A stretch of DNA of 64,000 nt from Lachnospiraceae bacterium (GTDB taxonomy: Bacteria; Bacillota; Clostridia; Lachnospirales; Lachnospiraceae), in NCBI GenBank assembly GCA_045661345.1, contig JAZRFM010000016.1, positions 3,626-67,625 of the forward strand, in the 5' to 3' direction. Within the stretch, counting starts at the first letter, position 1. Each line of letters opens with the position of its first letter. The notes below the pieces were generated by a model, which saw only the letters and a list, made by a program, of their open reading frames with translations, did no database searches and was not told where the DNA came from. Positions 1 through 28,045 of the stretch are shown piece by piece. Made by a program: the position numbers and the translations under genes.

Positions 1-2697
1 GCCCCGGAGCAGGAAGTGGAAGAGAATACCTTAAAGATCAACAAACTCCTGGATCATGCCGCAGATCTTCATCTTACACCCATACAAAAGAAAGATCTTG
101 AGATCCGGCGAAATCGGAATCTGAATTTTGGGCTGGTCTATGATCGGTCAAAGGCGGATGAAAGTAAAGAGATGGATGTTGTCAGGAATGATATTCGTGC
201 ATATGAAAAATTATTGTTTCAGGCTCCCAAAACAGAGGAAGAGCGACAGCAGAAGTTTGAAGAGGCAAGGGCACACTGCCAGAAAATGATAAATGATTGC
301 GATGCCTATCTGAACAGGGACAGGGGATGGTCTTTCCGTTTTTGGAAGCAGGCTCGTAATGAACATGTCTTAGCGGCAAAAGAACGGTTTCGAAAAGATT
401 ATAATACCTTCACAATACTCCTGGGGGCACATGATGAGATGAAAAAAGCTTTCCATGCTGATGACAGGCTGATCGATCTGATGAATGGGGAAGCGATCAA
501 GGAGCGTATGACGCTGAATACCCTGGAGCAGGTACAGAAGCAAGCTGAGGAACAAAAACTGATTCAGGATCAGCAGCAATATTTGAAACAGCATCAGGCA
601 GACTGGGCGAACGAACTCAAAAGTTTTAACAATGCAGAAAACGAAGCGGCACAGAAAAAGACCGGATATAAGTTGCTGAAGAAGATGGCAGATGTACTTC
701 TGAAAAGCAAGGAATTCGGCCCGGGTCTTGCGAAGAAATATGCGGGAGATGATATCGAGGGTATCGCCTTTTCGTATCAGATGGCCATTGCCGAACAGGG
801 TACGCAGAAAGATCAGGAGCTCCTTTACGATTTTAATGCGGAGGAGATCCGGCGCGTTCAGCAGGAAACTGTTCAGAACAAAGTGATCCGGGATGTGGTG
901 AGACCGCTCCTTCCGGGGGTTTTGGAAATGAGCTCGGTTTTGCGTGACCTCATCAAAGAAAAGGTGGACGAAAGCATTAGCCATGAAGAAAACAATAGGA
1001 TGGAAATAGAAAAATCCTTCCCGAAGGGGTTTCCCGTACAGGATTATGAGGATCCGAAGGTGCGGGAGAAGTTTCGTGCCCAGGTGAAGGAAAAGATGGG
1101 CCGTGGAATGAAGCTTTCGGATGCAGTGGAAGAGGCGTTAAAGGATCGTCGTCAGGCTTTGAGAGAATATGTCGAAAACGAAACCAGGAAAAATAGCCTG
1201 GTCCCGGTGATGTCGGATAAGGAGATCGCCGCCATGAATAAAGAAGGAAAGCTGTATTCCGGGATCAGCGAGGAGCAGTGGAAAAAGAGCGGAGGCGCGA
1301 CTTATAGGAAGATCATGACAACAGCTGAAGCAGAGAAACTGGTGGCAAAAAGCAATGGCTTCTTATGTGCCGTCAAGGTAAAGGTTGCACCCGGAGAGGA
1401 TCCTTTGCCCGGCGTGCGCGAGATCCGTCCGAGTCTTCCCGAAACGGCCGTGATCAATGGAGAGAACGTACCTCTTCGAAAGATTTATAATCTGCTGGTC
1501 AAAACCTATATCACGATGGCGACCAATCCGGATGGTTCGTTGAAGGAAGATACGACAGAACTTGTTGAGAAATTTGAAAATCTGGTCAGATTTATGCCTC
1601 AGGCGCAGGGAAACAAGGACGCGATCGCAGAGGGGAAGAGGATCTTAGAGCATACGTTTCTGCCCGTCATGCAAGAACTTCTGGAGGCGCAGTACGAAAA
1701 AGAAGGAAATATGGAGGCCAAGGAAAACGCGGCCGATGAGGTTGAGGGGATCTGCCGTGGTCTGATGACGGTCCTGACGAATATGAAGACCTATTTCATG
1801 GGCCCGGAGGTATCGCTGAATGCAAAAGCCGACTCTGTGAAAAACCTGTTGAATACGGATATGGCAAAATTATCCGCACATCTTGAGACGATCAAGCTGA
1901 AGATATGGGAGACCGACGAAGAAGGCAAGGAAAAGCTTGTGGAGAGAGTACCAACGAAAGAAGAGATAGAGAAGGCGATCGAAGCTACGTTCCATGATCT
2001 GGAACTGGCAAATCTGGCAATGAAACAGGTACGGGACTTGGATCCGAACGCACCGGATATTCCGATCCAAAATGCCTGTTCTGCAAACGGGATCTTCTAT
2101 TCATCGATGAGAATTCTGCTCTACGGGGGAGAGAAACAAGAAGCCCGTTATCTTTCCAAAGATTATGTGGTTCAACGTCCGGAGGATGTGCGCCGGTATC
2201 TGTTAAAGAACTTTGATCTGCTTGCGCCGGGTGCGGATGCCACACCGGCAGAATTGGTAAATTATCGAAGGCAGCTGGAAGAGATCTCTTTTCAAAAAGG
2301 GCAGACGTTTCAAAGCGGTATGGAAAACGAGGACATCAAAACTTTGTGCAAGGTCGCGAACGCCTTTGCCAAATATGTGTACCATGTCGCGGCAGACATC
2401 GTCAATAATGAAGAGGACGGACTCGTTACCATCGAAGGCTTTGCGGCAGAGACCGGCCAGTATCTGGTAGAACCCTTTACCATGCATGGCGCCATCGGGC
2501 AGTATCGGGGAGAGACGCATGAAGAAATAACCCATGACGTCAATGCAATCAAGAATACCGGCTTCAATACCTATTATAACTCGGACAATCCCTTTGCTTC
2601 CAATATAATAGATACATTGAAGATCTATATCAAGATGGAATTGCAGAGTTCTCCGGAGAAATATCAGAATAAGAGAAGGAATGGTTCACACCAGTGA
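1..2697 (+). CDS. Large paralog A, 5'-truncated by the window edge. It has the shared helical N-terminal domain of the four-member family and a unique ~650-aa C-terminal region with no kinase-like motif.
   Basis: Frame 1 is open from nt 1 (APEQEVEENTLKIN...). It aligns with residues ~55 onward of the 8293..11352 protein (VSEQQVAANTLKIN...), so the true start lies upstream of the window. Identity to B is roughly 60% by eye over the first ~170 aa (DLEIRRNRNL, KTEEERQQ, DRLIDLMN), then the sequences are unrelated. Confidence 0.85.
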   Translation, partial: APEQEVEENTLKINKLLDHAADLHLTPIQKKDLEIRRNRNLNFGLVYDRSKADESKEMDVVRNDIRAYEKLLFQAPKTEEERQQKFEEARAHCQKMINDCDAYLNRDRGWSFRFWKQARNEHVLAAKERFRKDYNTFTILLGAHDEMKKAFHADDRLIDLMNGEAIKERMTLNTLEQVQKQAEEQKLIQDQQQYLKQHQADWANELKSFNNAENEAAQKKTGYKLLKKMADVLLKSKEFGPGLAKKYAGDDIEGIAFSYQMAIAEQGTQKDQELLYDFNAEEIRRVQQETVQNKVIRDVVRPLLPGVLEMSSVLRDLIKEKVDESISHEENNRMEIEKSFPKGFPVQDYEDPKVREKFRAQVKEKMGRGMKLSDAVEEALKDRRQALREYVENETRKNSLVPVMSDKEIAAMNKEGKLYSGISEEQWKKSGGATYRKIMTTAEAEKLVAKSNGFLCAVKVKVAPGEDPLPGVREIRPSLPETAVINGENVPLRKIYNLLVKTYITMATNPDGSLKEDTTELVEKFENLVRFMPQAQGNKDAIAEGKRILEHTFLPVMQELLEAQYEKEGNMEAKENAADEVEGICRGLMTVLTNMKTYFMGPEVSLNAKADSVKNLLNTDMAKLSAHLETIKLKIWETDEEGKEKLVERVPTKEEIEKAIEATFHDLELANLAMKQVRDLDPNAPDIPIQNACSANGIFYSSMRILLYGGEKQEARYLSKDYVVQRPEDVRRYLLKNFDLLAPGADATPAELVNYRRQLEEISFQKGQTFQSGMENEDIKTLCKVANAFAKYVYHVAADIVNNEEDGLVTIEGFAAETGQYLVEPFTMHGAIGQYRGETHEEITHDVNAIKNTGFNTYYNSDNPFASNIIDTLKIYIKMELQSSPEKYQNKRRNGSHQ

Positions 2698-8292: not shown

Positions 8293-11200
8293 ATGGATGA
8301 GATGAATAGAAGCCGCATGAGAAACAACGCTTTCGCAATGGACGAAAAACAGTCCCAGCTGCAGCGCGATCTGGGAATGATCACGCGTGAACGAATGAAT
8401 CCCCTCTTTATGGAGAATCAGACAAATCAGGTCGATTTCGGATTCGAGATGATCGAGTACGTTTCCGAACAGCAGGTGGCGGCAAATACATTAAAAATCA
8501 ACCGCCTTTTGGATAATGCCGGGGATCTTCATCTCTCGGCCGCACAACGGACAGATCTTGAGATCCGGAGAAACCGGAATCTGGATTTTGAGCTTGTCAA
8601 TGATCAGTCAAAGTCGAAAGACAGTGACGAAATGAAGACTGTCAAGAACGATATCCGGGAATTTGAAAGAATCCTGTATCAGTCTGCCAAAACGGAGGAA
8701 GAGCGTCAGCAGATGATTGCCGATGCGATGGCACACTGCCAGAGGACGATTGCCGATTGCAATACCTATCTGAAAAAGGGGAAATCTTTCTTTTTCTGGA
8801 GGCAAGGTCGTTATGATCAGGTCGCAGCGGCAAAAGAGCGGTTTCAAAAAGACTACGATACCTTCTTGAAGCTTTTTGATGCGTCTGATACGATGAAAAC
8901 AGGGTTCCGCGCCAATGACAGACTGATCGATCTGATGAATGTGGAAGCGGTCAATGAACGGGTAGCGCAGAAGGCTATGGAGGAAGCTGAAGAGGAGTAC
9001 CAGAGGGAGAAGTATCAGGAACAGAAGACAGAGGAAGAATACGAGTACGAAGAGGGGGATTCGTTCGAAGAGATTCCGGCGGAAGAACAGGGGCAATATC
9101 AGGAACAGAAGACAGAGGAAGAATACGAGTACGAAGAGGGGGACTCATTCGAGGAGATTCCGGCGGAAGAACAGGAGCTATATCAGGAGCAGAAAGAAGA
9201 GCCCTGGCGCGAATGGGGAGGAGAAGCAGTACCATTTGAGCAGGAGCAGCAGCAAGAAGAGCAGCAGCAAGAAGAACAGCAGCAAGAAGAACGGCAACAG
9301 CAGCAGAAAGAGGAGCCCTGGCGCGAATGGGGAGGAGAAGCAGTACCATTTGAGCAGGAGCAGAAAGAGGAGCCCTGGCGCGAATGGGGAGGAGAAGCGG
9401 TACCATTTGAGCAGGAGCAGCAGCAAGAAGAGCAGCAAGAAGAACAGCAGCAGGAGCAGAAAGAAGAGCCCTGGCGCGAATGGGGAGGAGAAGCAGTACC
9501 ATTTGAGCAGGAGCAGCAGCAGGAAGAGCAGCAGCAAGAAGAGCAGCAACAGCAACAGCAAGAAGAACAGCAGCAACAGCAGCAGCAAGAACAACAGCAG
9601 CAACAGGAATTATATGGAACGAAAGTGCTGGATCAGCTGAAGAATCTGGCGAAAACGCCGGAAATGCAAGCGATCGAAGCTGCGATTACAGATATTCAAA
9701 CCGAGATGGCGAAGGAGATGCCCGCCGTCCAGGTGATGCAGGATAAGGATCAAGAGAAGAAAGCAGAACGCCGCGCGCGCAAAGGCAAGGATGGTGTGGA
9801 TGCTCTTTGCGTGAAAATGGTCAGACTTTTTGGCGCATTGGATCAGCGCATTAATGATTGCCTGAAGAAGGAAAATGGTGCGGGATATGGAGGAAATGAC
9901 GCATTAAAGGATATTCTGGAGAACCTTCGGGAACAGACGAAGGTGGATCGTACCCAATTCAAGGATAAGGTTGTTCAATATCGTTCCTATATCGCAGGGA
10001 ATGCAGAAGAAGCCGCCAAAAATCATTCATGGTTTGATGCATGGAAATATGTCCGTAGCGTTTCTTATGATCTGGATGAGAAAGACAATGGATTGGAAAC
10101 CGTAACCGTGGGAGCAGGTGCTTCGATGATTACGTTAGTCAAGGATACAAAGAAGAAACAAAAGGTTTATTTCCGTCAGGGAGAGAACGCAGGAGGATGG
10201 AATTCGGAGGAGCTGGTGAAAAACTTTATGGAGTCTATCAAAGGAGAAATCCAGCTCGACGACGTCACGAAAGAGGATCTCAAGAAGGCATTTGGACATT
10301 TATTCCCCCAAAATGTACTGGACGAGGTCAAGGACGCATACAGGAAGGCGAATGAAGCAAAGCTAGAACGTGCGATAGACAAATTGGACGAATTCAGAGT
10401 AAGCCAATATCGGAGTAGTGATGTCAGGAAAAATATAGATGGGTTTGTTCAGACCGCTGCCTGTCCGGGAATACTCAAGGAGATGTACCGGAATGCAACC
10501 GATAAAGTCAGAACAGAGATAGGAAAAGCCTTTACCTTATTTGCGAAGAAGCATTTCCAGTGGAGTTTTTCAGTTGGCTCTGCGAGAATCGATCCGGAGC
10601 AAAGTCTCACAGACCGAAATGTTGCGACAAGCAGGTTGGCCGGCTTGCTCGGGCTTAGTTCCATGATCAGCGATTCCAGAACAGCCGTGATCAAAAAGGA
10701 TGGAAAAGAGGTCATGGGAAATGTGATGGAGGACTCAAGGGGGAAAACAACATCTCAAATGAGGGGTGACTGGACCTACTCTGATAAGGCGATCGGCCAA
10801 GCGTATACGTTGCAGGTCTTTGATATGATATGCGGGCAGATTGACCGGCATCACGGGAACTATCATATCATCGAAAAGAACAGGAATGTGAACAGCATCA
10901 AGGCAATCGACAACGATATGTCCTTCGGAAAGCTGACGTGGGATACCATTGCAGAAGGGCACGAGAATATCTCGCCGCTTACGGAAAGTCATATGCGGGC
11001 AATGCCAATCGCGGTAATCAACCAGATACTTTCGCTGGATAAAAAGATTTTGCAGGAGGCGCTTGGTGATGTCCTGGACAGTGACAGCATGAATTATTTG
11101 CTGGATCGACTTGGAGGTGTACAAAGAACCATCATGGAATATGCCGAAAATCCCGAGTCCGGACTTCAGATAAGCGCGGACGGCAAGGCAGCCGAGTTCA

Positions 11201-11352
11201 CCGGAGAAGATAAGGACGACACGCTGCGGATGCTGAAAGCGGTCAGAAAAAACAGGGATGCCCGCACCTTAATCTGGTGGGATAACCTTACGGAAAAAAC
11301 CCTTGATGAGAAAATAGAGGCGAGAAAAAAGGAATTGGCGCAGAAAAAATAA
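8293..11352 (+). CDS. Large paralog B: family N-terminal domain, repeat/E-Q-rich linker, and a C-terminal PI3/PI4-kinase/HipA-like atypical kinase domain
   Basis: AAGGAGG RBS. The N-domain matches A. Gly-rich GAGASM (10111-10128), KVYFRQGE, catalytic-loop-like GQIDRHHGN (DRHHGN at 10843-10860), and metal-loop-like AIDNDMSFG (IDND at 10906-10917). Confidence 0.85.
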   Translation: MDEMNRSRMRNNAFAMDEKQSQLQRDLGMITRERMNPLFMENQTNQVDFGFEMIEYVSEQQVAANTLKINRLLDNAGDLHLSAAQRTDLEIRRNRNLDFELVNDQSKSKDSDEMKTVKNDIREFERILYQSAKTEEERQQMIADAMAHCQRTIADCNTYLKKGKSFFFWRQGRYDQVAAAKERFQKDYDTFLKLFDASDTMKTGFRANDRLIDLMNVEAVNERVAQKAMEEAEEEYQREKYQEQKTEEEYEYEEGDSFEEIPAEEQGQYQEQKTEEEYEYEEGDSFEEIPAEEQELYQEQKEEPWREWGGEAVPFEQEQQQEEQQQEEQQQEERQQQQKEEPWREWGGEAVPFEQEQKEEPWREWGGEAVPFEQEQQQEEQQEEQQQEQKEEPWREWGGEAVPFEQEQQQEEQQQEEQQQQQQEEQQQQQQQEQQQQQELYGTKVLDQLKNLAKTPEMQAIEAAITDIQTEMAKEMPAVQVMQDKDQEKKAERRARKGKDGVDALCVKMVRLFGALDQRINDCLKKENGAGYGGNDALKDILENLREQTKVDRTQFKDKVVQYRSYIAGNAEEAAKNHSWFDAWKYVRSVSYDLDEKDNGLETVTVGAGASMITLVKDTKKKQKVYFRQGENAGGWNSEELVKNFMESIKGEIQLDDVTKEDLKKAFGHLFPQNVLDEVKDAYRKANEAKLERAIDKLDEFRVSQYRSSDVRKNIDGFVQTAACPGILKEMYRNATDKVRTEIGKAFTLFAKKHFQWSFSVGSARIDPEQSLTDRNVATSRLAGLLGLSSMISDSRTAVIKKDGKEVMGNVMEDSRGKTTSQMRGDWTYSDKAIGQAYTLQVFDMICGQIDRHHGNYHIIEKNRNVNSIKAIDNDMSFGKLTWDTIAEGHENISPLTESHMRAMPIAVINQILSLDKKILQEALGDVLDSDSMNYLLDRLGGVQRTIMEYAENPESGLQISADGKAAEFTGEDKDDTLRMLKAVRKNRDARTLIWWDNLTEKTLDEKIEARKKELAQKK
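9013..9180 (+). repeat. Two tandem in-frame 84-bp repeats, each encoding YQEQKTEEEYEYEEGDSFEEIPAEEQ..
   Basis: Units start at 9013 and 9097; a third partial unit starts at 9181. A few substitutions separate the copies. Confidence 0.9.
9187..9606 (+). repeat. Four copies of a ~57-bp in-frame unit (KEEPWREWGGEAVPFEQEQ), separated by variable CAG/CAA/GAA (Q/E) tracts and ending in a poly-Q run
   Basis: The CCCTGGCGCGAATGGGG cores start at 9202, 9316, 9373 and 9469, giving spacings of 114, 57 and 96 bp. Confidence 0.9.
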
Positions 11353-11369: not shown

Positions 11370-13544
11370 ATGAAAAAACCTTCCAAAAAGCATTCACTCG
11401 GACTGACCGGAAAACTGATACGATTTGTCGTGATTTTCGTCCTGTTTCTGGGGCTTGTGTTTTTTATCCTTGGCGCTATGCAGCTCAGGCAGCTCAGCAG
11501 AATAGCAGAGAGGGAAGAAAAAAAACAGGAGGAACTGGTACAGGAAAAATCCAGAGAGTCCTTGTCTGAGCTGACCCATGAAAGTCTTTATGAAGTGATT
11601 GCCTGGGCAGCAGACAGGACGGATGACGAATTCTTCATCCTGCAGCACGATCTGCGGGAGCTGGGGGAGCAGGTAAAAGATGTGCTCCGCTATCCGGAAA
11701 GGTATGAGACGCAGACGGTGGAACCGCCGAAAAAAGAGAATGACGGGAAATATGTCCTGCAGCTTCTGTGTCCGGGATCCTATGAGGACATTTCTCCGGA
11801 AACGATGGAGGCCATGGGCAAGCTCGCAAATCTCGCGCCTGCCATGCGGGAAATGGTGGAGGGTAACGCCGGCTTCACGCTGGACAATTTTATTGCATTG
11901 CCGGATGGCGTCAGTATTGCCATGGATGATCTTTCCGGTGGAAAATATGAGGAAAACGGAAAGATTCGTGAATACGATGCTGCGAGTCGGCCGTGGTTTC
12001 AATACGCGCTGGGGCAGGATGGTGTCATCTTTATCCCGGCGCATAGCCATTTCTATAATTTCAACGAGGTTATCTACAGCGTCCCGGTGTATATAGACGG
12101 GGAGCTTGCAGCCGTACTGGAGGGCTCCACCCGGCTGGATATTCTGGAGAAGATGCTGGCTGAACAGAATATCGGAGAAAGCGGCTTTTCCATTCTGGTT
12201 TCTGACGGAGGGCAGCTTGTCTGCTCTCCGAGAACAAGCGGGGAATTGGGAATGCGGGAGGATGTATCGGTGGATATCCGCCCGGAAATCAATGCAGGCC
12301 TGGCAGAGGCTATTAACAGGGGACTTGCCGGAGAACACGGTGTGATGGTGACGCAGGTGGACGGAGAGACTTATCATGTTGCCTATGACAGACTGGAGAC
12401 GATTGGCTGGACACAGCTGGCTTTTCTATCTTCGGAGGAACTCCATGCACCGGCTCAGAGCCTGGTGGAGGATATAGAATCCTCGACGCAGGATATGCTT
12501 TCCGCTCTGCGAAACCGTTTCCGAAATACCGCCATACTCATGATACTCCTGATTGCCGCTCTTGCCGCATTCTCCATTGTTACGGTCAGCTCTCTTGCAA
12601 AGAAACGCATAGAACCTGTCAAGCATATGACGAAAAAGGTTCGTAACTTCTTTGCGGATGAGAATATGGCCTTTGAAATGGAGGACATCTACAAGACCGG
12701 AGATGAGATCGAGACGCTGGCACACTCTTTTGCGATGCTGTCCAAAGAGATGAAGGATTATGTGGCGGAAAACGTACGGATCTCTGCGGAAAAAGAAAGG
12801 ATCGGCGCAGAACTGAATGTCGCCACCAGGATTCAGGAAGATATGCTGCCGAACATTTTCCCGATATTCCCGGATAGAAAAGAGTTTGAGCTTTATGCTT
12901 CGATGAATCCTGCCAAAGAAGTGGGCGGGGATTTCTATGATATGTTCCTGATCGATGAAGATCATCTGTGCATGGTCGTCGGGGATGTGTCGGGAAAAGG
13001 CGTCCCGGCGGCTCTTTTCATGGTGGTCTCCAAGACGATGCTCAAAAACCGTGCCCAGGCGGGCGGAAAGCCCTCAGAGATCCTGCACGATGTCAATAAC
13101 AGCCTGTGCGAGGGCAACAAGGAGCATATGTTTGTGACGGTATGGCTGGGGATCCTCACCATATCTACCGGAGAACTGATAGAAGCAAACGCGGGTCATG
13201 AATATCCGGCTCTTTGCCGGGCAGGTGGTGACTATGAGCTGTATGAGGATAACCATGGATTTGTCCTGGGTGGTATGAAAGATATGCCGTATCAGGATGA
13301 TGAGCTGGTGTTAAAAAAGGGAGATGTCCTGTTTATCTACACGGACGGCCTGCCGGAGGCGACCAACGGAAAAGGGGAGCGTCTGGAAGAAACGGGAATG
13401 CTTGCAGTACTGAATGCGCACAAGGGAGATACGACGAAACAGCTGTTGGAAAACATAGCAGTAGAGGTAAGCAGGTTTGTCGGTGACGCCCCGCAGTTTG
13501 ATGATCTGACCATGCTGATTCTGAGGTATGCGGGATCGGAATGA
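11370..13544 (+). CDS. Membrane sensor PP2C phosphatase (SpoIIE/RsbU family): TM, extracytoplasmic Cache-like domain, TM, HAMP, PP2C
   Basis: N-terminal TM LIRFVVIFVLFLGLVFFILG. Cache-like SRPWFQYA ... GWTQLAF. Second TM AILMILLIAALAAFSIV. PP2C motifs GGDFYD, VGDVSGKGVPAALFM, YTDGLPEA and QFDDLTML are present. Confidence 0.88.
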   Translation: MKKPSKKHSLGLTGKLIRFVVIFVLFLGLVFFILGAMQLRQLSRIAEREEKKQEELVQEKSRESLSELTHESLYEVIAWAADRTDDEFFILQHDLRELGEQVKDVLRYPERYETQTVEPPKKENDGKYVLQLLCPGSYEDISPETMEAMGKLANLAPAMREMVEGNAGFTLDNFIALPDGVSIAMDDLSGGKYEENGKIREYDAASRPWFQYALGQDGVIFIPAHSHFYNFNEVIYSVPVYIDGELAAVLEGSTRLDILEKMLAEQNIGESGFSILVSDGGQLVCSPRTSGELGMREDVSVDIRPEINAGLAEAINRGLAGEHGVMVTQVDGETYHVAYDRLETIGWTQLAFLSSEELHAPAQSLVEDIESSTQDMLSALRNRFRNTAILMILLIAALAAFSIVTVSSLAKKRIEPVKHMTKKVRNFFADENMAFEMEDIYKTGDEIETLAHSFAMLSKEMKDYVAENVRISAEKERIGAELNVATRIQEDMLPNIFPIFPDRKEFELYASMNPAKEVGGDFYDMFLIDEDHLCMVVGDVSGKGVPAALFMVVSKTMLKNRAQAGGKPSEILHDVNNSLCEGNKEHMFVTVWLGILTISTGELIEANAGHEYPALCRAGGDYELYEDNHGFVLGGMKDMPYQDDELVLKKGDVLFIYTDGLPEATNGKGERLEETGMLAVLNAHKGDTTKQLLENIAVEVSRFVGDAPQFDDLTMLILRYAGSE

Positions 13545-13668
13545 GTGAGGAGGAGCAGATCCCCCTGCGGGAGGATCTGTCAGAGAAAGATTTACATTTG
13601 TCTGAAAAAAAGGTATTATTTGGTTGATTATCCAAAATTTTCTAAAAAAGAGGCGTAGAACTTCCGAG

Positions 13669-15849
13669 ATGAAGAAAAAATCCAGGATCCTTCCAACAGG
13701 ATTGGCCGGAAAACTGATTCGATTTGTGGTGGTTTTTGTACTAAGCCTGGGGCTTGCGTTTCTCCTGATCTCCCATATACAGCTCAACACCCTCAACAGA
13801 ATGGTGGAGCAGGAGGAAGAGAAACAGGCGGTTCTGGTACAGGAAAAATCCATGCAGTCTGTATCGGAGCTGACGGAGGAAAGTCTCTCCGAAATGATCG
13901 CCTGGGCGGCGGACAAGACGGACGACGAGTTTTTTATTCTGCAGCATGATATCCTGGTACTCCGGCAGCAGGTGGAGGACGTGCTCCGTCATCCCGAAAG
14001 ATATGAGACCCTGTTGGTGGAGCCCCCGAAAAAAGAAAATACCGGCAAATACGTCCTCCAGCTGGACGGACCGGAAGAATATGAAGAGTTTTCGCCGGAA
14101 ACGATGGAAACCCTGGGGAAGTGTGCGAATCTGGGCCCGATGATGGCCGAGATGGTGCGGGGAAACGAAGGCTTCACGCTGGATAATGTGATTGCGACGC
14201 CGGATGGCGTCTGTATCGGCATGGACAATCTGTCCGGCGGAAAGTTTGATGAAAATGGAGAGGTCATTCCCTATGACGCAAGAGAGTTTCCCTGGTTTCA
14301 GGATGCCATCAGGGAGAATACCGTTGTGTTTTCTGTTACACACAGTCATTTTTATGACCTGAACGAGGTCATCTACAGTGTACCGGTATACGTGGACGGA
14401 AAGCTGGGTGCGGTGCTGGAGGGGTCTTCCCGCATGGATATTCTGGAGCGTAAGCTGACGGAACGGAATATCGGTAAGGGCGGGTTTTCCATTCTGGTTA
14501 CCGATAACGGGCAGCTGGTCTGCTCTCCCCGGACAGACGGTGAGCTGAAAATGAGAGAGGATGTGACGGAGGATATCCGTCCCGGGATCAATGGCGGTCT
14601 GGCAGAGGTCATCAACAAAGGACTTTCCGGTGAGACCGGCGTAACGCTGACGCAGGTGGACGGCAATTCCTATTATACTGCCTATGCACCTCTTAATACG
14701 ATTGGCTGGACCCAGCTCGCTTTTGTCTCCGAGGAGGAACTGCAAGCGCCGGCAAAGAATCTGGTTCAGGAGATGGAAGCGTCGACGGACGATATGCTCT
14801 CCACCCTGCGGCATGAATTCGCGAATTCGGCCGTCCTGACAGTGTTCATTCTGGCAGGCATCATCCTCTTTTCCATCCTGATTGTCGGTTCCCTTGCGAA
14901 AAAACGGGTAGAGCCCATCAAGCATATGACGATCAGGATCCGTAACTTCTTTACTGATGAAGCTATGGTCTTTGAAATGGAGGATATCTACAGAACCGGA
15001 GACGAGATTGAGACACTGGCGCGGTCATTTGAGATATTATCCGAGGAACTGAAGGAATACGTGGCGGAAAACATACGGATCTCTGCGGAAAAGGAGAGGA
15101 TCGGTGCCGAGCTGAATGTCGCCAAAAAGATTCAGGAGGATATGCTGCCGAATCTCTTCCCGATTTTCCCGGACAGGAAAGAGTTCGATATCTATGCTTC
15201 CATGAAGCCGGCCAAGGAAGTGGGGGGAGATTTCTATGATATCTTCCTGGTCGATGACGATCATCTTTGTGTGGTTGTGGGAGACGTCTCCGGGAAAGGA
15301 GTCCCTGCGGCGCTTTTCATGGTGATTTCCAAGACAATGCTGAAAAACCGTGCGCAGGCAGGCGGTAAGCCCTCCGAGATTCTGTACGATGTCAACAACA
15401 GCCTGCACGAGGGAAATAAAGAAAAAATGTTCGTGACAGTCTGGCTGGGGATCCTTACCATTTCCACCGGGGAGGTGGTATGGGCCAGTGCGGGACATGA
15501 ATATCCCGTCATCGGCCGGGCAGAGGGTGACTATGAACTGTACGAAGATAAACACGGATTTGTTCTGGGCGGCATGAAAGGGATGCCCTATCGTGACAAT
15601 GAGCTGGTGTTGAATCAGGGAGATGCGTTGTTCCTCTATACGGATGGTTTGCCGGAGGCCACCAATGCGAAGGGGCAGCGGCTGGAGGAAAAAGGAATGC
15701 TTGCGGCATTGAACGCGCACAGAACGGATACGACAGAACAATTGCTGAAAAATGTTGCGGAAGAAGTGAACCGGTTTGTCGGGGATGCGCCGCAGTTTGA
15801 TGACCTGACAATGTTGGTATTAACATACGGGGAATCTGTCACGGAATAA
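13669..15849 (+). CDS. Tandem paralog of the preceding gene with the same Cache-HAMP-PP2C architecture
   Basis: ATG at 13669 (MKKKSRILPTGLAGKLIRF) aligns with the start of the upstream paralog. All PP2C motifs are conserved. The sensor domains are visibly more diverged than the phosphatase domains. Confidence 0.88.
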   Translation: MKKKSRILPTGLAGKLIRFVVVFVLSLGLAFLLISHIQLNTLNRMVEQEEEKQAVLVQEKSMQSVSELTEESLSEMIAWAADKTDDEFFILQHDILVLRQQVEDVLRHPERYETLLVEPPKKENTGKYVLQLDGPEEYEEFSPETMETLGKCANLGPMMAEMVRGNEGFTLDNVIATPDGVCIGMDNLSGGKFDENGEVIPYDAREFPWFQDAIRENTVVFSVTHSHFYDLNEVIYSVPVYVDGKLGAVLEGSSRMDILERKLTERNIGKGGFSILVTDNGQLVCSPRTDGELKMREDVTEDIRPGINGGLAEVINKGLSGETGVTLTQVDGNSYYTAYAPLNTIGWTQLAFVSEEELQAPAKNLVQEMEASTDDMLSTLRHEFANSAVLTVFILAGIILFSILIVGSLAKKRVEPIKHMTIRIRNFFTDEAMVFEMEDIYRTGDEIETLARSFEILSEELKEYVAENIRISAEKERIGAELNVAKKIQEDMLPNLFPIFPDRKEFDIYASMKPAKEVGGDFYDIFLVDDDHLCVVVGDVSGKGVPAALFMVISKTMLKNRAQAGGKPSEILYDVNNSLHEGNKEKMFVTVWLGILTISTGEVVWASAGHEYPVIGRAEGDYELYEDKHGFVLGGMKGMPYRDNELVLNQGDALFLYTDGLPEATNAKGQRLEEKGMLAALNAHRTDTTEQLLKNVAEEVNRFVGDAPQFDDLTMLVLTYGESVTE

Positions 15850-15890
15850 GTCTGTATCACAGTTCGTATGGTAATCCAGGTGGAGAACGT

Positions 15891-16313
15891 ATGAAAGAAA
15901 TAAAGGTAGCGGCAGATCGCGGCAATATGCAAAAGGTGCTGGATTTTGTGGAGGATGAGATCAAACAGAATCCTGATTTCAGCCACACGGATTTACTCCA
16001 GATTCATATGGTCATTGATGAGATCTTTGGAAACATTGCATCCTACGCTTACGATGACAGCGGGGGCGATGTGAAGGTCATGATGGATTTCGACAAAGCA
16101 CAGGGAAATATGACACTTGTGTTTTCGGATGAGGGGAAGCCGTATAATCCCCTGCAGAATGAGGATCCGGATGTGACGCTGCCGGCAGATAAACGCAGAG
16201 TCGGCGGTCTGGGGATTTTTATGGTAAAAAATACAATGGATGAAATAGCATACGAAAACAAAGACGGCAGGAACATATTGACAATGAAAAAACAAGGAGG
16301 TAACCATGTTTAA
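15891..16313 (+). CDS. Anti-sigma-factor-type serine kinase (RsbW/SpoIIAB-like, HATPase_c)
   Basis: 140 aa. N-box EIFGNIASYAY, G1 DEGKPYNP, G2 GGLGIFMVKN. Confidence 0.85.
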   Translation: MKEIKVAADRGNMQKVLDFVEDEIKQNPDFSHTDLLQIHMVIDEIFGNIASYAYDDSGGDVKVMMDFDKAQGNMTLVFSDEGKPYNPLQNEDPDVTLPADKRRVGGLGIFMVKNTMDEIAYENKDGRNILTMKKQGGNHV

Positions 16314-16608
16314 CGTAAAAACAGAGATTTCAGGCGAATCAATTCTCATTTCACTGGAGGGGCTGCTGGATTCCCAGACTGCACCGGAGCTGACAGCTGT
16401 GCTGGACGAAAATCTGGGCAAGGTGAACAACATCCGGTTTGACTTTGCAAAACTTGAATATCTGACGAGCGCGGGACTGCGGGCAATTCTGGTGGCACAG
16501 CAGGAAATGAACGACAAGAACGGTGTCATGACCGTAACAAACATCTCGGACGATATTATGAAGATTTTTGAGATGACGGGGTTTGCTGATGTATTGACGA
16601 TTGTGTGA
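16306..16608 (+). CDS. STAS-domain anti-sigma-factor antagonist (RsbV/SpoIIAA-like)
   Basis: 100 aa. The phospho-acceptor context FAKLEYLTSAGLRAIL is present. Its start overlaps the kinase gene by 8 nt. Confidence 0.88.
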   Translation: MFNVKTEISGESILISLEGLLDSQTAPELTAVLDENLGKVNNIRFDFAKLEYLTSAGLRAILVAQQEMNDKNGVMTVTNISDDIMKIFEMTGFADVLTIV

Positions 16609-16725
16609 AAAAATCGGAAAGACACATAACTTTCCGCTTGAGCCTGCCAAAGAATCTGCAAAATGGTATAATGAAAGTGATCTCCCTTCTTTCGCGGCTA
16701 GGGAGTGTTTCAGGAGGAGCCAGAC

Positions 16726-17631
16726 ATGAAAAGAGTAGCTATAAACGAAGCAATTTTGGATGCATTTTTGCCCATGGATTTCTACGGGAAGACGGACATG
16801 CTTTCTCTACCGGGCAGTTTTGCTCTCGGGATTACGCTGGAGGACGGAGAGGAAGATGAACCTGTGGGTTTGATCGTTTGTACGCAGGACGAAGACCGGC
16901 TCGTGATAGAATGGATTTATGTCATGCCGGACTGCCGTGGCGACGGGATCGGAAGCGAACTCCTGTATCTGGCATTCTGCGAGGGAGAAGCACGGGGGTT
17001 TGTGGATGCCGCTGCCAGAGTCTCGGATGAATTTGAAGCGAATGACTATGGGTGGAACACAAAAAGCTTTTTCGAAAATGAGGTGTTTTCCGGCACGGAG
17101 AAGGGGGAGTATGACTGGCGGATCTCCTTTCGTGAACTGGAAAAAATACTGATGCGGGATGAGGAGCTGAATGAATCCTCTGCCAGAAAAGTGATCCGGC
17201 TTTGCGACATGAAACCCGATGTGCTGAAAGAAGCAGCAGAATCGCTTGCAGCTCGTTTTGACGGGAGTGCTTCCCTGCCGATGGAGGCAGCGATCTCTGT
17301 TGCAAACTGGAACACAAGCTTCTTACTGAAGAAGGGCAATGACTACGTTGGCATCCTTCTGATCCGGAAAGTGGAGCAAACCTGGTATCCTTATCTGTTG
17401 TATGCATTTGATGATGAGGTGGGCGAGACGCTTATCCGTGCAGCACTCTACTGCAGCGAGGATGTCTGTATGCCCAAGGATGAGATTGCGATTGAGATCA
17501 AGACAATTTCTACGAAAAGATTGCTGCAGAAAATAGGATTGCCGGGACAGGCATATGACGTAACCTATTGTCTTTGTTCCATGAAGGCTTTTACAGAAAG
17601 AAAAGCTGAGGTAGAGACCGAAGAGTCTTAA
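16726..17631 (+). CDS. GNAT-family acetyltransferase-like protein, two-lobed
   Basis: AGGAGG RBS before the ATG at 16726. GNAT motif A-like IEWIYVMPDCRGDGIGSELLYLAF. Confidence 0.65.
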   Translation: MKRVAINEAILDAFLPMDFYGKTDMLSLPGSFALGITLEDGEEDEPVGLIVCTQDEDRLVIEWIYVMPDCRGDGIGSELLYLAFCEGEARGFVDAAARVSDEFEANDYGWNTKSFFENEVFSGTEKGEYDWRISFRELEKILMRDEELNESSARKVIRLCDMKPDVLKEAAESLAARFDGSASLPMEAAISVANWNTSFLLKKGNDYVGILLIRKVEQTWYPYLLYAFDDEVGETLIRAALYCSEDVCMPKDEIAIEIKTISTKRLLQKIGLPGQAYDVTYCLCSMKAFTERKAEVETEES

Positions 17632-17642
17632 GGGAGAACAGA

Positions 17643-18497
17643 ATGGAAATCATAGAACTGACCGAGGATAATATTCAGGAATATGTGTCTTTTATCGGTG
17701 AGGATGTGGCAGAACATATCGGCCGCATTTTCTATCGCGGACTCATTGCGTTGTCAGAAGACCAAAAGGATATGGCGGCCGGTATCATCTGGCGGTACAC
17801 AAACCTGACGGAAAAGAAGGATACGGAGAGTGTGATCGAGTGGCTCAAAATTCAGGATCCGGAGGCCGCCGGAGCGTTGTTTGGTGCATATTCCGAACAC
17901 ATTGCAAAGGAAAAGGCGGTACGTTCCCATGCTGTGATCCCCGTGAAGGACACCGGCAGGGAACAGCAGGCATTGAAGGAGGCAGGCTTCAAAATCAGGC
18001 TGACGGAAGGTGACAATATTATTGTTTCCCTGTCCGAGCTTTTCGAGCTTCCTATTATGAAAAACCGCAATGTACCGGACTATATCCATCCGCTGAATAC
18101 ATTGGTATCACGGCGTTTCCGGAGAGGTGTGCAGCAGTGTATCTCGATTGGTCAAAGGGGGCTTTGCGAGGATCTGGAATATTTGCCCATGACCTGGTTT
18201 GATCCGGACATCTCTTTCTATGCGGAAAAGGATGGTAAATTCTGTGGTTTTTTGCTGTTCCATAAGATGCCCTCGGATATGATCGCGATCCAGCTCATGA
18301 CCGGAATCGGAAAAGACTTTCAGCAGACGATTCTCGGCATGATACGGAAGTGTATGATCACTATGGAGGAAAACTACCCGGCGGATACGAAGATCCTGAT
18401 GAATCGACGTAATCAGGCGTCCTTGAAGCTTGCGGAAAAACTGTTACCGAGGGGCTTCGGAATCCCGGTCTTTGCGGGCGGCAGGGAGGAAAGCTGA
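17643..18497 (+). CDS. Hypothetical protein, possibly a distant GNAT-like paralog of the preceding gene
   Basis: AAGGGAGA RBS, 11-nt gap from the upstream gene, similar length and layout. No clear acetyl-CoA motif was recognised. Confidence 0.6.
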   Translation: MEIIELTEDNIQEYVSFIGEDVAEHIGRIFYRGLIALSEDQKDMAAGIIWRYTNLTEKKDTESVIEWLKIQDPEAAGALFGAYSEHIAKEKAVRSHAVIPVKDTGREQQALKEAGFKIRLTEGDNIIVSLSELFELPIMKNRNVPDYIHPLNTLVSRRFRRGVQQCISIGQRGLCEDLEYLPMTWFDPDISFYAEKDGKFCGFLLFHKMPSDMIAIQLMTGIGKDFQQTILGMIRKCMITMEENYPADTKILMNRRNQASLKLAEKLLPRGFGIPVFAGGREES

Positions 18498-18819: not shown

Positions 18820-21630
18820 ATGGATGATAGCTTGTTCTTTAACCGACAAAAACGTAGAAATGGGGAACATGTTGATCTGGCGTCAAGGATGAGAAGCAAT
18901 TTTCTTGACATGACTGAGTCGAAAATGCTCACCTACGCGCAGGCTCAGGAACAACAGTTCCGGGAAGCCAATCATGGATTTATGGAGATGGTTCCGAATG
19001 AATTTTATATGGAGGGCCGGACGAAGCAAAACGTGCTCATGATTGACGAGCTTCTGGATAGCGCCGATACCCTCCACCTCACCGCGACGCAGAAGGAAGA
19101 TCTGCGTATCCGGCGAAATCGTGTCAAAGACTTTGAGCTACTGAACCATCATACAAAAGATGACAGCAAAGAGATGAGATTGTTAAAGGAAGAGATTCGT
19201 GAGTACGATAGGTTATTGTCCAGAAAACCGGCATCACTCGAGGATCTGCAGCAATTTTGCGCGGAGATAGAAAGAAAGTGTGATGATGCGATTGCGCGTT
19301 GTGACAAATATCTGGGGAGGGGAAAGCCTCTGTCATTCTGGAAAAAGAACAGAAATGAACGGTATCATATGGTAGAAGAGGCGAAGGCGCGTTATTTGAA
19401 GGAAAAAAATGTCATAAAGACTCTTTCCCAGCTGACGGATGTCGACCAGTATTTACAAGCCGATGATACGATGCTGGATCTGATGAACATTGAAAAGATC
19501 AATGATCGGTTGGTGGAGCGTGAGATAGAACAAAGACGCAGGCAGTGGGAAGAGCAGCAGCAGCGGGAACGGGAAGAAGCAGAACGCCGGGCAGAAGCAG
19601 AGCGCCAGGCAGAAGAAGAGCGCCACCGTCGGGAACAAGAAGAGCAGCAGCGGGAACGGGAAGAAGCAGAACGTCGGGCAGAAGCAGAGCGCCGGGCAGA
19701 AGAAGAACGCCACCGTCAGGAAGAAGAGCGTCAGAACCAGCAGCAGAACGAGCAGAACCAGCAGCAAGAAGAGCAGCAAGAAGAGCAGCAGCAAGAAGAG
19801 CAGCAGCAACAGCAGCAGCAACAGCAGCAACAGCAGCAACAGGAACAGCAGGAATTATATGGAACGAAAGTGCTGGATCAGCTGAAGAATCTGGAGAAAA
19901 CGCCGGAAATGCAAGCGATCGAAACTGCGATTACAGATATTCAAACCGAGATGGCGAAGGAGATGCCCGCTGTCCAGGTGATGCAGGATAAGGATCAAGA
20001 GAAGAAAGCAGAACGCCGCGCGCGCAAAGGCAAGGATGGTGTGGATGCTCTTTGCGTGAAAATGGTCAGACTTTTTGGTGCATTGGATCAGCGCATTAAT
20101 GATTGGCTGAAAAAGAATAATGGTGCGGGAAATGGGGAAAATAACGCATTAAAGGCTATTTTGGAGAACCTTCGGGAACAGACGAAAGTGGATCGTACCC
20201 AATTCAAGGATAAGGTTGTTCAATATCGTTCCTATATCGCGGGGAATGCAGAAGAGGCCGCCAAAAATCATTCATGGTTTGATGCATGGAAATATGTCCG
20301 TAGCGTTTCTTATGATCTGGATCAAAACAACAATGGATTGGAAACCAAAACCATGGGAGCCGGTGCTTCGATGATTACGTTAATCAAGGATACAAAGAAG
20401 AAACAAAAGGTTTATTTCCGTCTGGGAGAGAACGCAGGAGGATTTAATGCGGAAGAACTGGTGAAAACCTTTATGGAGTCTGTCAAAGGAGAAGCCCAGC
20501 TCGACGACGCCACGAAGGAGGATCTCAGGAAGGCGTTTGTTAGTTTGTTTCCCCAACATATACTGAATGTTATCAAGAGGGGGTTCGAACGGCAGGATGA
20601 AGGTTTAATTCGTGAAGGGGTAGACGCACTGGATGCAAAGGGAGTGAGCAATTATCGGAGTAGTGATGTCAGGAAAAATATAGATGAGTATGCTCAGACC
20701 GATACCTGTCCGGACATACTCAAACAGGCGTACCAGCGTGCAAACGACGAAGTCAAAACAGAGATAGGAAAAGTGTTTACCTTATTTGCGAAAAAATATT
20801 TCCAGTGGAGTTTTTCAGTTGGTGCCGCGAAAATTGATCCGGAACAAAGTCTTACAGATCGAAATGTTGCTACAAGCAGGTTGGCCGGCTTGCTCGGGCT
20901 TAGTTCCATGATCAGCGATTCCAGAACAGCGGTGATCAAAAAGGATGGAAAAGAGGTCATGGGAAATGTGATGGAGGACTCAAGGGGAAAAGTGATAGAT
21001 CGAGTGAGGGGTAACTGGACCTACTCTGATAAGGCGATCGGGCAGGTGTATACATTGCAGGTCTTTGATATGATATGCGGACAGATTGACCGGCACCGCG
21101 GGAATTACCATGTCATTGAAAAGAACCAGAAGGTGAACAGCATCAAGGCAATCGACAACGATATGTCCTTCGGAAGGCTGACGTGGGATACGATTGCACC
21201 AGGGTACGAAAACCTTCCGCCGCTTACGGAATGCCATGTGCGTGCAATGCCGATCGCGGTAATCAACCAGATACTTTCTCTGGATGAAAAGATTTTGCAG
21301 GAGGCGCTTGGTGATGTCCTGGACAGTACTAGCATTGATTATTTGGTTGACCGACTTGCAGGTGTACAAAGAACCATCATAGAATATGCCGAAAAGGATG
21401 AGTCCGGACTTACGATAAGCGCAGACGGCAAGTCAGCCGAGTTTACGGGAGAAGATAAGGATGACACGCTGCGGATGCTGAAAGCGGTGAAGAAACAAAG
21501 CGGACTCCCCTATCATATTAGGCTCGATGGAGGAGAAACTATCTTTGATAATAATCAGATCTGGTGGGATAACCTTACGGAACAAACGCTTGATGAGAAG
21601 ATAGAGGCGAGAAGAGGGGAGTTGGCTTAG
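18820..21630 (+). CDS. Large paralog C: D-type N-terminal domain, E/R- and Q-rich repeat linker, and a kinase-like C-terminal domain nearly identical to that of B
   Basis: AGGAGG RBS. GAGASM and KVYFRLGE are present. DRHRGN at 21088-21105 and IDND at 21151-21162. Confidence 0.85.
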   Translation: MDDSLFFNRQKRRNGEHVDLASRMRSNFLDMTESKMLTYAQAQEQQFREANHGFMEMVPNEFYMEGRTKQNVLMIDELLDSADTLHLTATQKEDLRIRRNRVKDFELLNHHTKDDSKEMRLLKEEIREYDRLLSRKPASLEDLQQFCAEIERKCDDAIARCDKYLGRGKPLSFWKKNRNERYHMVEEAKARYLKEKNVIKTLSQLTDVDQYLQADDTMLDLMNIEKINDRLVEREIEQRRRQWEEQQQREREEAERRAEAERQAEEERHRREQEEQQREREEAERRAEAERRAEEERHRQEEERQNQQQNEQNQQQEEQQEEQQQEEQQQQQQQQQQQQQQEQQELYGTKVLDQLKNLEKTPEMQAIETAITDIQTEMAKEMPAVQVMQDKDQEKKAERRARKGKDGVDALCVKMVRLFGALDQRINDWLKKNNGAGNGENNALKAILENLREQTKVDRTQFKDKVVQYRSYIAGNAEEAAKNHSWFDAWKYVRSVSYDLDQNNNGLETKTMGAGASMITLIKDTKKKQKVYFRLGENAGGFNAEELVKTFMESVKGEAQLDDATKEDLRKAFVSLFPQHILNVIKRGFERQDEGLIREGVDALDAKGVSNYRSSDVRKNIDEYAQTDTCPDILKQAYQRANDEVKTEIGKVFTLFAKKYFQWSFSVGAAKIDPEQSLTDRNVATSRLAGLLGLSSMISDSRTAVIKKDGKEVMGNVMEDSRGKVIDRVRGNWTYSDKAIGQVYTLQVFDMICGQIDRHRGNYHVIEKNQKVNSIKAIDNDMSFGRLTWDTIAPGYENLPPLTECHVRAMPIAVINQILSLDEKILQEALGDVLDSTSIDYLVDRLAGVQRTIIEYAEKDESGLTISADGKSAEFTGEDKDDTLRMLKAVKKQSGLPYHIRLDGGETIFDNNQIWWDNLTEQTLDEKIEARRGELA
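19551..19855 (+). repeat. Two tandem 87-bp in-frame units (REREEAERRAEAER.AEEERHR...) followed by a CAG/CAA/GAA tract encoding poly-Q/E
   Basis: CGGGAACGGG cores at 19564 and 19651. The poly-Q run ends just before CAGGAATTATATGG at 19849. Confidence 0.88.
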
Positions 21631-27410: not shown

Positions 27411-27418
27411 AGGGGAGT

Positions 27419-28045
27419 TCAAGCCCTGGTCTGGGTCAGGGCAGTATCAATCAGGTTTTTTAATTCTACGCGTTCCACGGAGTCCAGCTCGATGTCCGGC
27501 TTTTTTTCCAGATCGATCAGATCCAGGATCACCTTACAGCCGTTCCTTTTCAGCGCCCTTGACAAACGGGGTCTCACATGATCCCAGTTGATCTCAAGCT
27601 CCAGAATCCAGCTGGGAGCGGTTTGAATCAGGCGACGGCGCATAAGAGGAAGGAGACTGTCCGGGATGCGGTTTTGCTGCAAAAAGCGGTAAACAGCGCA
27701 AAGATCGGCATAGTCGACATATTCCGTTTCGATGGCGTCAAATATGGCGCCCACGGTAGCATAACGCCCGTCTGTCAGGTCTGCGATCTCGATGGAACGG
27801 ACATACTCCGGCTTCCAGAACACGACCCTGTCGCTGCCCGCATCGGTTTCATATTGCCTGATGAGCCGGTTCAGCTCTTCCATCGCGAGGGTTCCCAGTT
27901 TCAGCTCGAGAAGCGCAGAAGGGGACAGATCCTGAATCTCCTGCAGGGTCTGATAGCCGGCTTTCCTGAGCAATGCGAAGGTGCGGGAGGAAAGAGCACC
28001 CTTTTTATGCAATTCTTCCAAATAAACAGGTGTCATAAAGAACAT
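27419..28045 (-). CDS. Hypothetical protein with two RNA-polymerase-alpha-CTD-like helix-hairpin-helix segments
   Basis: LSSRTFALLRKAGYQTLQEIQDL and LSRALKRNGCKVILDLIDL. Start chosen at ATG 28045 (28036 is also possible), because the listed 28270 start overlaps the divergent lipoprotein gene. Its stop abuts the start of the GT2-GH3 gene. Confidence 0.6.
   Translation of the reverse strand: MFFMTPVYLEELHKKGALSSRTFALLRKAGYQTLQEIQDLSPSALLELKLGTLAMEELNRLIRQYETDAGSDRVVFWKPEYVRSIEIADLTDGRYATVGAIFDAIETEYVDYADLCAVYRFLQQNRIPDSLLPLMRRRLIQTAPSWILELEINWDHVRPRLSRALKRNGCKVILDLIDLEKKPDIELDSVERVELKNLIDTALTQTRA

Follow-up and report, generated by a model that had tools for sequence, protein, structure and literature searches.

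A putative protein kinase-like family of gut and rumen Firmicutes with Fam20 and type II PI 4-kinase signatures and a tandem-GNAT gene partner

The Fam20 kinases and the type II phosphatidylinositol (PI) 4-kinases (PI4KII) are the closest described relatives of a kinase-like domain that forms the C-terminal part of two proteins, B and C, encoded in a stretch of 64,000 nucleotides from a Lachnospiraceae bacterium (contig JAZRFM010000016.1, positions 3,626 to 67,625; the whole stretch is referred to as the window). In Fam20C, Lys271 binds phosphates and Asp478 is the metal-binding equivalent of the DFG aspartate, and in ceFam20, Glu213 serves as the essential αC glutamate (PMC5413348). In the catalytic segment of Fam20C, the D451N exchange is said to disrupt a salt bridge, and R459 is described as the neighbour of the cation-interacting Asp (PMC7948968). 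PI4KII alpha has an insertion, termed I1, that comes after Lys152 and forms a lining of the PI pocket (PMC3974213). New families in the superfamily of protein kinase-like (PKL) proteins are now regularly reported from structure-based surveys (e.g., bioRxiv preprint 10.64898/2026.09.18.752743), so that the existence of the fold alone is no surprise; what is new here is a PKL family with a new gene partnership, the PKL fold itself being already known.

Conserved motifs and a structural model show that B (8293-11352, 1019 aa) and C (18820-21630, 936 aa; both by translation of their open reading frames, ORFs) end in a PKL domain of about 460 residues, which represents a large family without a name, found in Firmicutes of the gut and rumen and there for the most part in Lachnospiraceae and Butyrivibrio, and which is likely to catalyze phosphotransfer. 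Its place in the PKL superfamily is the corner occupied by Fam20, type II PI4K, CtkA and CotH. No model in Pfam, NCBIfam, PADLOC or PHROGs claims the family at threshold, and literature searches found no description of it, in agreement with a first-pass annotation of the window that had put the domains of B and C forward as a candidate new family. The two domains are 77% identical. A third, degenerate copy, which had been missed, is present in the paralogue D and was revealed by a degenerate DNA pattern for C-G-Q-x-D-R, for which the window has three sites where 0.05 would be expected. This count and the conservation among homologues rule out that the motifs arose by chance. The relevant features are:

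9970..11349, + strand: kinase-like (PKL) domain of B, residues 560-1019
10111-10128, + strand: G-loop GAGASM of B, followed in the domain by the β3 strand KVYFR, a 125-residue helical insert, the RNVATSR helix, GQIDRHHGN and IDND
10843-10845, + strand: codon of D292 in the predicted catalytic loop GQIDRHHGN of B
10906-10917, + strand: predicted metal-binding motif IDND of B
20218..21627, + strand: kinase-like domain of C, residues 467-936, with its β3 Arg in YFRLGE
21088-21105, + strand: DRHRGN of C
21151-21162, + strand: IDND of C
22697..24127, + strand: degenerate kinase-like domain of the third paralogue D (ORF 21758-24130, 790 aa)

Fold and sequence relationships of the kinase-like domain

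Translation of 10111-10929 and of both ORFs returned every motif of the first-pass annotation in its reported place (GAGASM, KVYFRQGE, DRHHGN and IDND in B; DRHRGN and IDND in C). KVYFRQGE begins 17 residues past GAGASM (10111), and 244 residues lie between the G-loop and the catalytic Asp, where about 240 had been estimated; the gap between ...GNYHI and AIDND, given as 12 residues, is in fact 11. The Asn at position +5 of the catalytic Asp and the downstream metal-binding Asp, both pointed out earlier, are present in B and C (D292, N297 and D314; residue 1 is the first residue of the domain of B throughout).

Residues 560-1019 of B were modelled with AlphaFold2 using a homologue alignment, which gave a pLDDT of 94.5 and a pTM of 0.92. 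In this model, GAGASM (48-53) is located at the turn between β1 (42-49) and β2 (52-59), β3 (64-70) carries KVYFR and is followed by the helical insert (79-204), and a helix with RNVATSR (213-226) leads to two strands (236-254), a helix (272-288), the loop D292-N297, a hairpin (298-312) and then D314. DRHHGN thereby follows the αE helix and IDND the next β-hairpin, and the order of elements in the model is the canonical kinase order. Foldseek searches against the PDB placed PI4KII beta and alpha at the top (9hhm_A, 4wtv_A, 4pla, 4hnd_A; E 2.9e-6 to 7.8e-4, probability 1.0), with 242 aligned columns and an rmsd of 5.3 Å for 4hnd_A. MK2 and other eukaryotic protein kinases, MavQ (7m7a), CotH (5jd9) and CtkA (3akk) were found at lower ranks, the last three at E 0.03-0.05, and a viral library contributed phage proteins named PI3K/PI4K catalytic domains at E about 2e-4; the significant matches in both collections are all kinases.

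Sequence comparisons point to Fam20. Full-length B matched the Pfam model Fam20C at E 4.6e-4 (20.4 bits vs a gathering cut-off of 26.8), and a phmmer search of the PDB with the domain of B found Fam20B (E 0.031) and Fam20C (E 0.038), pairing FDMICGQIDRHH with FDFLMGNMDRHH and IDNDMSFG with LDNGRGFG. A profile of the C-lobe only (A3) matched Fam20C at E 4.5e-5, Fam20A at 7e-4, Fam20B at 7e-3 and PI4KII beta at 0.24. Its alignment, which comprises about 120 residues, leads from FDxxxGxxDRHH past xDNxxxFG as far as the ALDRRL helix and places D285, D292, R293 and D314 on D451, D458, R459 and D478 of Fam20C. It was the trimming to the C-lobe that recovered Fam20; a full-length profile (A1), which includes N-terminal helical regions, gave only spurious helical-bundle and TetR matches in the PDB and was rejected. 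As a profile of the N-lobe only (A5, 59 positions) matched no kinase in the PDB, the placement of R69 at the position of the ATP lysine draws on model topology and family conservation.

A word-indexed search retrieved 53 unannotated homologues, among which one (P0046) has a precomputed match to PI3_PI4_kinase (PF00454) and another a match to Fam20C. When the members of a 51-sequence alignment were scanned singly against Pfam, PI3_PI4_kinase was matched by 17 (best E 2.4e-5), Fam20C by 15 (best E 5e-6) and HipA_C by two (best E 0.0038). All of these matches are weak and all three models belong to the kinase clan; the next most recurrent model was Trp_repressor, with 5/51. B and C have no match to PF00454 (gathering score 27.1 bits) at E ≤ 0.1 and none to HipA_C, and none of the APH or choline-kinase profiles matched. 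The first-pass annotation had named the lack of any kinase-fold match by profile or structure as the outcome that would undo its proposal; kinase matches were obtained with Pfam, with the C-lobe profile and with Foldseek. From the proposed kinship to PI3/PI4-kinases and HipA, the kinase fold is retained; the nearest family, however, is Fam20 when judged by sequence and type II PI4K when judged by fold, and neither PI3K, type III PI4K nor HipA comes as close.

The structural ranking raises the question of whether B and C could be true bacterial orthologues of type II PI 4-kinases acting on membrane phosphatidylinositol, and the 17 relatives with a weak PF00454 match could be read in the same way. 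We consider this extremely unlikely: the profiles favour Fam20 over PI4KII, PF00454 fails to match B or C, and no membrane segment is evident in the sequence. To our knowledge, Firmicutes generally lack phosphatidylinositol. In addition, the CCPCC motif and the amphipathic-helix insertion are absent, and the I1 site is occupied by a different, 125-residue helical insert (PMC3974213).

Active-site conservation and its exceptions

In the 51-sequence alignment, D285, C288, G289, Q290, D292 and R293 are invariant, as are R216, V218 and T220 of the RNVATSR helix, and N297, D314, N315, D316, F319 and G320 are conserved to at least 90%; counted over the 51 homologues and about 109 domain instances, conservation of N297, D314 and D316 is at least 94%. 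The N-lobe has the consensus GxGxS ... (Y/F)FKxxE. It is the Arg of KVYFR, and not the Lys of KVYF, that occupies the position of the conserved β3 Lys (FK elsewhere in the family).

In the mechanism that we propose, the GxGxS loop (GAGAS) and the basic residue in β3 (Lys in the majority of the family, Arg in B and C) would hold the phosphates of ATP, N297 and D314 of IDND would bind Mg2+, and D292 of the DRH motif would act as base in the transfer of the γ-phosphate to a hydroxyl group of the substrate. D285 may brace the catalytic loop, like D451 in Fam20C. The 125-residue helical insert between β3 and the αC-like RNVATSR helix probably forms the substrate pocket, since it is found at the same topological site as I1 of PI4KII alpha. 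Candidate substrates are proteins, glycans or amino sugars, and other small molecules; the structural relatives act on proteins (Fam20C, CotH, CtkA), glycans (Fam20B) or lipids (PI4KII, MavQ). We propose that the kinase-like protein acts in the cytoplasm together with the adjoining tandem-GNAT protein, because no signal peptide is apparent in the hydrophilic N-termini of B, C and D (MDEMNRSRMRNN...; read directly from the sequence, without a predictor) and because the partner needs acetyl-CoA. In some genomes, the pair is encoded beside partner-switching genes of the RsbU/RsbW/RsbV type.

Several observations weigh against this proposal. All Pfam matches stay below the gathering scores (for Fam20C, PF06702, the isolated domain of B reaches 23.0 of 26.8 bits), and Foldseek gave low TM-scores (0.31-0.35), with T4-lysozyme fusion constructs as three of the four best matches. 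The conserved Lys of β3, which corresponds to K271 in Fam20C and K152 in PI4KII alpha, is replaced by Arg in B, C and their nearest relatives, and in classical protein kinases the exchange of this Lys for Arg is a standard inactivating mutation. The RNVATSR helix contains an invariant Asn at the place to which an alignment by eye alone assigns the αC Glu. Lastly, the closest relatives decay: D and the orthologues of D and B in L001, the locus most closely related to that of the window, have lost the metal-binding Asp. The fold assignment from the model is secure; the ranking among PKL families is soft, because the TM-scores are modest and three of the four top matches are T4-lysozyme fusions.

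D has KTKTDEDT in place of the G-loop, DRQWGS as its catalytic loop (N297S) and ATGNDMAFG at the site of the metal-binding motif (D314G), and it is predicted to be a degenerate pseudokinase. It is encoded directly downstream of C, and the same tandem of kinase-like protein and pseudokinase is found in L001 (3086-5884 and 5903-8284), in which the orthologue of D carries D314N. The orthologue of B in L001, with 76% identity, shows the exchanges G48A, N217S, D314N and D316E. Are B and C pseudokinases as well, that is, non-catalytic scaffolds or allosteric partners, which perhaps regulate the GNAT protein or an active paralogue as Fam20A does for Fam20C? The Arg in β3, the loss of catalytic residues within the same clade and the partial degeneration of the GNAT partner family would all agree with this, and Fam20A, a pseudokinase paralogue that activates a kinase, provides a precedent (PMC5413348). 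However, B and C retain the G-loop, D285, D292, N297, D314 and D316. The β3 position is occupied by Lys in 65 and by Arg in 24 of about 97 domains, and by Thr in four (133 domain instances in the fetched loci); those with Arg, which are deeply diverged down to about 30% identity, keep D292, N297 and D314 in 19 of 21 complete cases, suggesting continued selection on the active site. Since the triad is kept across such divergence, the Arg is a tolerated natural variant of the lineage and not in itself a sign of decay. We thus regard the pseudokinase explanation as unlikely, albeit as the strongest competitor of an active kinase. B and C look catalytically equipped within a clade in which catalysis is sometimes dispensable, and on account of these occasional losses we rate true activity of B and C as reasonably probable and not higher.

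PKL folds with atypical motifs have repeatedly been found to perform other reactions, such as AMPylation by SelO or glutamylation by SidJ, and the domain has two atypical features, the Arg in β3 and the Asn at the αC position, that could be taken as hints to such an ATP-dependent chemistry. The catalytic Asp, the Asn and the DFG-like Asp are, however, all found at the standard spacing typical of phosphotransferases, and a reaction other than phosphorylation seems very improbable.

Family distribution, gene neighbourhood and domain architecture

In a profile search over 1.84 billion cluster representatives, the family was matched 4,115 times at E ≤ 1e-3, 2,793 times at E ≤ 1e-10 and 845 times at E ≤ 1e-30. 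Relatives were located in 105 stretches of GTDB species genomes, nearly all of which derive from rumen or gut Lachnospiraceae and Butyrivibrio, with a few in Anaerotignum, Hungatella or Oscillospiraceae; cultured carriers include Butyrivibrio sp. AE2015, Su6 and FCS014. Several genomes contain multiple copies, and tandem arrays of paralogues occur.

The ORFs of 78 loci around members of the family were clustered. The genes next to B and C in the window are:

1..2697, + strand: protein A, cut by the window edge, with an N-terminal domain 58% identical to that of B
11370..16608, + strand: partner-switching module between B and the GNAT genes
11370-13544 and 13624-15849, + strand: paralogous dCache-SpoIIE/PP2C phosphatases, 72% identical
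15891-16313, + strand: RsbW-like HATPase_c_2 kinase
16306-16608, + strand: STAS antagonist, overlapping the RsbW-like gene by 8 nt
16705..17631, + strand: tandem-GNAT acetyltransferase partner (GNAT308) with an intact acetyl-CoA motif, RGDGIGSEL
17643..18497, + strand: p284, second member of the GNAT-partner family, directly upstream of C, with a 4-residue deletion in the acetyl-CoA motif

A GNAT-family protein of about 283 aa is encoded in 49 of the 78 loci, and its gene directly adjoins 51 of 89 kinase-gene arrays, in 36 cases on the upstream side, with a median gap of 24 bp. Pfam Acetyltransf_1 was matched by 34 of 56 GNAT-partner proteins; p284 matches no Pfam model. The acetyl-CoA motif R-x-x-G-x-G/A is kept in about half of the partners and lost in other subfamilies, and the two GNAT genes of the window, one with an intact and one with a deleted motif, mirror the intact and degenerate members of the C-D pair. 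For the first of them, the true start is probably an ATG near 16774 and not the GTG at 16705, as an identical database protein has 285 aa. A model of this first GNAT, built from a shallow alignment of seven sequences (pLDDT 83.9), matches two-domain GNAT proteins at E about 1e-10 to 1e-11, namely VipF, Eis-like proteins, the clavulanate tandem GNAT, a Clostridium glucosamine N-acetyltransferase, MAB_4324 and NMT.

The conserved neighbour of the family is thus the tandem GNAT and not PP2C, next to which the domains had been described as duplicated. For B this description is correct, since two dCache-SpoIIE/PP2C genes follow after 18 bp; C, however, is located about 3 kb further on and directly after two GNAT-family genes. 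PP2C/SpoIIE, RsbW-like and STAS genes are found in 16 of the 78 loci, always at a distance of no more than five genes from the module (25 of the 459 genes flanking it vs 0 of 97 genes farther away). The complete order PP2C-PP2C-RsbW-STAS-kinase-GNAT-GNAT recurs only in the locus L002, and the closest relative, L001, has the order GNAT-GNAT-kinase-kinase-kinase without PP2C. The link to PP2C is real but facultative, with an enrichment that was judged within the loci and not against a genome-wide rate. No sigma factor gene was noted adjoining the partner-switching set at 11370-16608. The notion that GNAT and kinase-like genes pair strictly 1:1 was given up, as gene maps show ratios of 0:3, 1:3, 3:2 and 4:2. 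Other neighbours (ABC exporters, two-component systems, AAA+ ATPases, pheST, hydrogenase) are generic and gave no clear functional clue.

In a subgroup of four loci (L019, L021, L024 and L060), the kinase-like gene is found among three genes for AAA+ ATPases of about 730-800 aa (WHD plus AAA), together with a small GNAT, a protein with the N-terminal domain described below, RsbW and PP2C, which makes up a different and larger conserved cluster. Two further genes of the window encode a DUF6033 protein (6769-7647, - strand; Pfam E 1e-69), which is located upstream of B on the opposite strand and is not conserved in related loci, and an 875-aa protein (24795-27422, - strand) with a GT2 glycosyltransferase N-terminus, GH3-family domains and a weak OlsH-like match; the latter is an unusual fusion, unrelated to the kinase-like family.

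Proteins of the family have lengths of 560-2996 aa and always carry the kinase-like domain at the C-terminal end; the giant members (1663-2996 aa) contain no Pfam domain. The regions upstream of the kinase-like domain in the window are:

8452..8985, + strand: N-terminal helical domain of B, residues 54-231
19000-19536, 21878-22414 and 4-534, + strand: the same domain in C, D and protein A, respectively
9006..9606, + strand: linker of B, made of E/Q-rich tandem repeats (84, 57 and 96 nt periods, and CAG runs)
19556-19851: analogous E/Q-rich linker of C

The N-terminal helical domain (100-180 aa) precedes the kinase-like domain in 68 of 114 ORFs and is also found on about ten neighbouring proteins with other C-termini, including A. 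The C-terminal region of A (about 700 residues; 718 aa) is not kinase-like and unrelated to B, C and D, and it has no match in Pfam and no sequence match in the PDB. This looks like an N-terminal module that is combined with differing C-terminal heads. Many members of about 1,300-1,500 aa (L051, L059, L043; P0061-P0068) contain two kinase-like domains, each with a complete N-domain unit, so that the tandem genes of the window also exist as fusions.

The linkers of B and C are encoded by tandem DNA repeats, whose periods are 84, 57, 96 and 87 nt, and by CAG runs, and the 28-aa unit in B includes DSFEE, an S-x-E site. S-x-E is the type of site preferred by Fam20C. The exact sequences of B and C are absent from the protein collection, in which D and p284 are present, and for this reason the linker repeats may vary in length or resist assembly. 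B and C share 93% identity in the stretch that immediately precedes the kinase-like domain (9580-9970 vs 19855-20220), compared with 77% in the kinase-like and 37% in the N-terminal domain, which suggests recent recombination or gene conversion between them.

An N-terminal domain common to proteins with unrelated C-termini (A and about ten others) is reminiscent of toxins or effectors; on this reading, it would serve for delivery, with the kinase-like domain as a warhead of the HipA or polymorphic-toxin type and the GNAT-fold protein as the antidote. Several copies per genome, tandem paralogue arrays, degenerate copies, tightly adjoining GNAT-fold partners that often appear non-catalytic, and a weak match to the PADLOC candidate PDC-M03A (2.7e-4, catalytic loop only) would fit such a role. 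Yet the genes and their surroundings revealed no domains of the secretion-system, LXG/WXG, Rhs or immunity type, HipA_C was matched by only two of the 51 relatives and no hipB-like gene is present, and the partner is mostly upstream and a full-size two-domain enzyme. The context is chromosomal, with housekeeping genes (glnA, dtd), and a true PADLOC or PHROGs membership is lacking. A defence or phage origin was likewise rejected, as PADLOC gave one sub-threshold match of 40 residues and PHROGs matched only the GNAT; no known defence system and no signs of phage or plasmid were found at the locus by PADLOC, PHROGs and context genes. Overall, a toxin function is improbable, more so than the pseudokinase explanation, and we continue to favour a cytoplasmic phosphotransferase.

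Comparison with described kinase-like systems

If the domain is active, it provides a first functional handle for thousands of unannotated proteins of Lachnospiraceae and Butyrivibrio, which dominate the rumen and the human gut and often carry these genes in several copies per genome. The natural alternation of Lys and Arg in β3 and the kinase/pseudokinase tandems offer a ready system for studying drift of the PKL active site. One could further speculate, although we doubt that the whole picture will hold, that the kinase-like protein and the tandem GNAT form a modification module of two enzymes that is widespread in gut and rumen Firmicutes and has gone unrecognised, with pairs of catalytic and pseudo-catalytic paralogues (C-D, GNAT308-p284) like Fam20C-Fam20A, wired to RsbU/RsbW/RsbV in some lineages, and that the family is a prokaryotic sister lineage linking eukaryotic Fam20 and type II PI4K. 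If true, this would be a previously undescribed module of a kinase and an acetyltransferase, and the signatures in common with Fam20 and type II PI4K could inform the origin of both eukaryotic families, whose prokaryotic roots are unclear.

A genetic coupling of a GNAT to a kinase-fold enzyme is known from pairings of the AAC(6')-APH(2'') type. Here, too, a GNAT and a PKL-fold enzyme are coupled, and the GNAT model is Eis-like or glucosamine N-acetyltransferase-like, a comparison at the level of fold similarity. In contrast to the AAC/APH pairing, the kinase-like proteins reach 560-2996 aa with large extra domains, and several partly degenerate copies are found per genome.

CotH, CtkA, MavQ and HipA belong to the same neighbourhood of the PKL fold, as seen from the Foldseek matches of the first three and the HipA_C matches, but they resemble the family far less than Fam20 or PI4KII do. 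No spore-coat context and no effector translocation signal was seen. The HipA N-domain is missing, and no hipB-type or helix-turn-helix antitoxin gene adjoins the family in the neighbourhoods examined; the domain is not HipA-like in any testable sense.

PI4KII alpha and beta, which are covered by PF00454, are the best structural match (E 2.9e-6, probability 1.0) and have in common with the family a GxxGS-type G-loop with a phosphate-binding Ser, an FK-type β3, a DRxxxN loop, an (A)IDN motif and an insertion just after β3 (PMC3974213). However, the TM-scores are only about 0.35 and the profile E-value only 0.24, B and C lack the CCPCC palmitoylation motif and the RK-rich insertion, their own insert is larger and unrelated, and nothing in the family points to membrane association or a lipid substrate.

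The best sequence relationship is that to Fam20 (Fam20C/A/B, PF06702), with a C-lobe profile E-value of 4.5e-5 over about 120 residues. Both families contain FDxxxGxxDRHH, followed after 19-21 residues by xDNxxxFG, with the same spacing of the two Asp residues (D451/D458 vs D285/D292), and a C-terminal helix with a conserved Arg, and both hold kinase and pseudokinase paralogues. The kinase-like family, however, scores below the gathering threshold (23.0 vs 26.8 bits), lacks a signal peptide or any sign of secretory features, and carries at position +5 from the catalytic Asp an Asn (DRHxGN) instead of the Glu of Fam20C. It possesses a 125-residue insert in the N-lobe, an N-terminal helical domain and an E/Q-rich linker, and it is bacterial, presumably cytoplasmic and paired with a GNAT gene. 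Taken together, the domain would work like an atypical kinase of the Fam20/PI4KII type but is a member of neither family, because it falls below both Pfam thresholds, lacks the secretory features of the one and the membrane insertions of the other, and has an insert, an N-terminal domain and a GNAT partner of its own.

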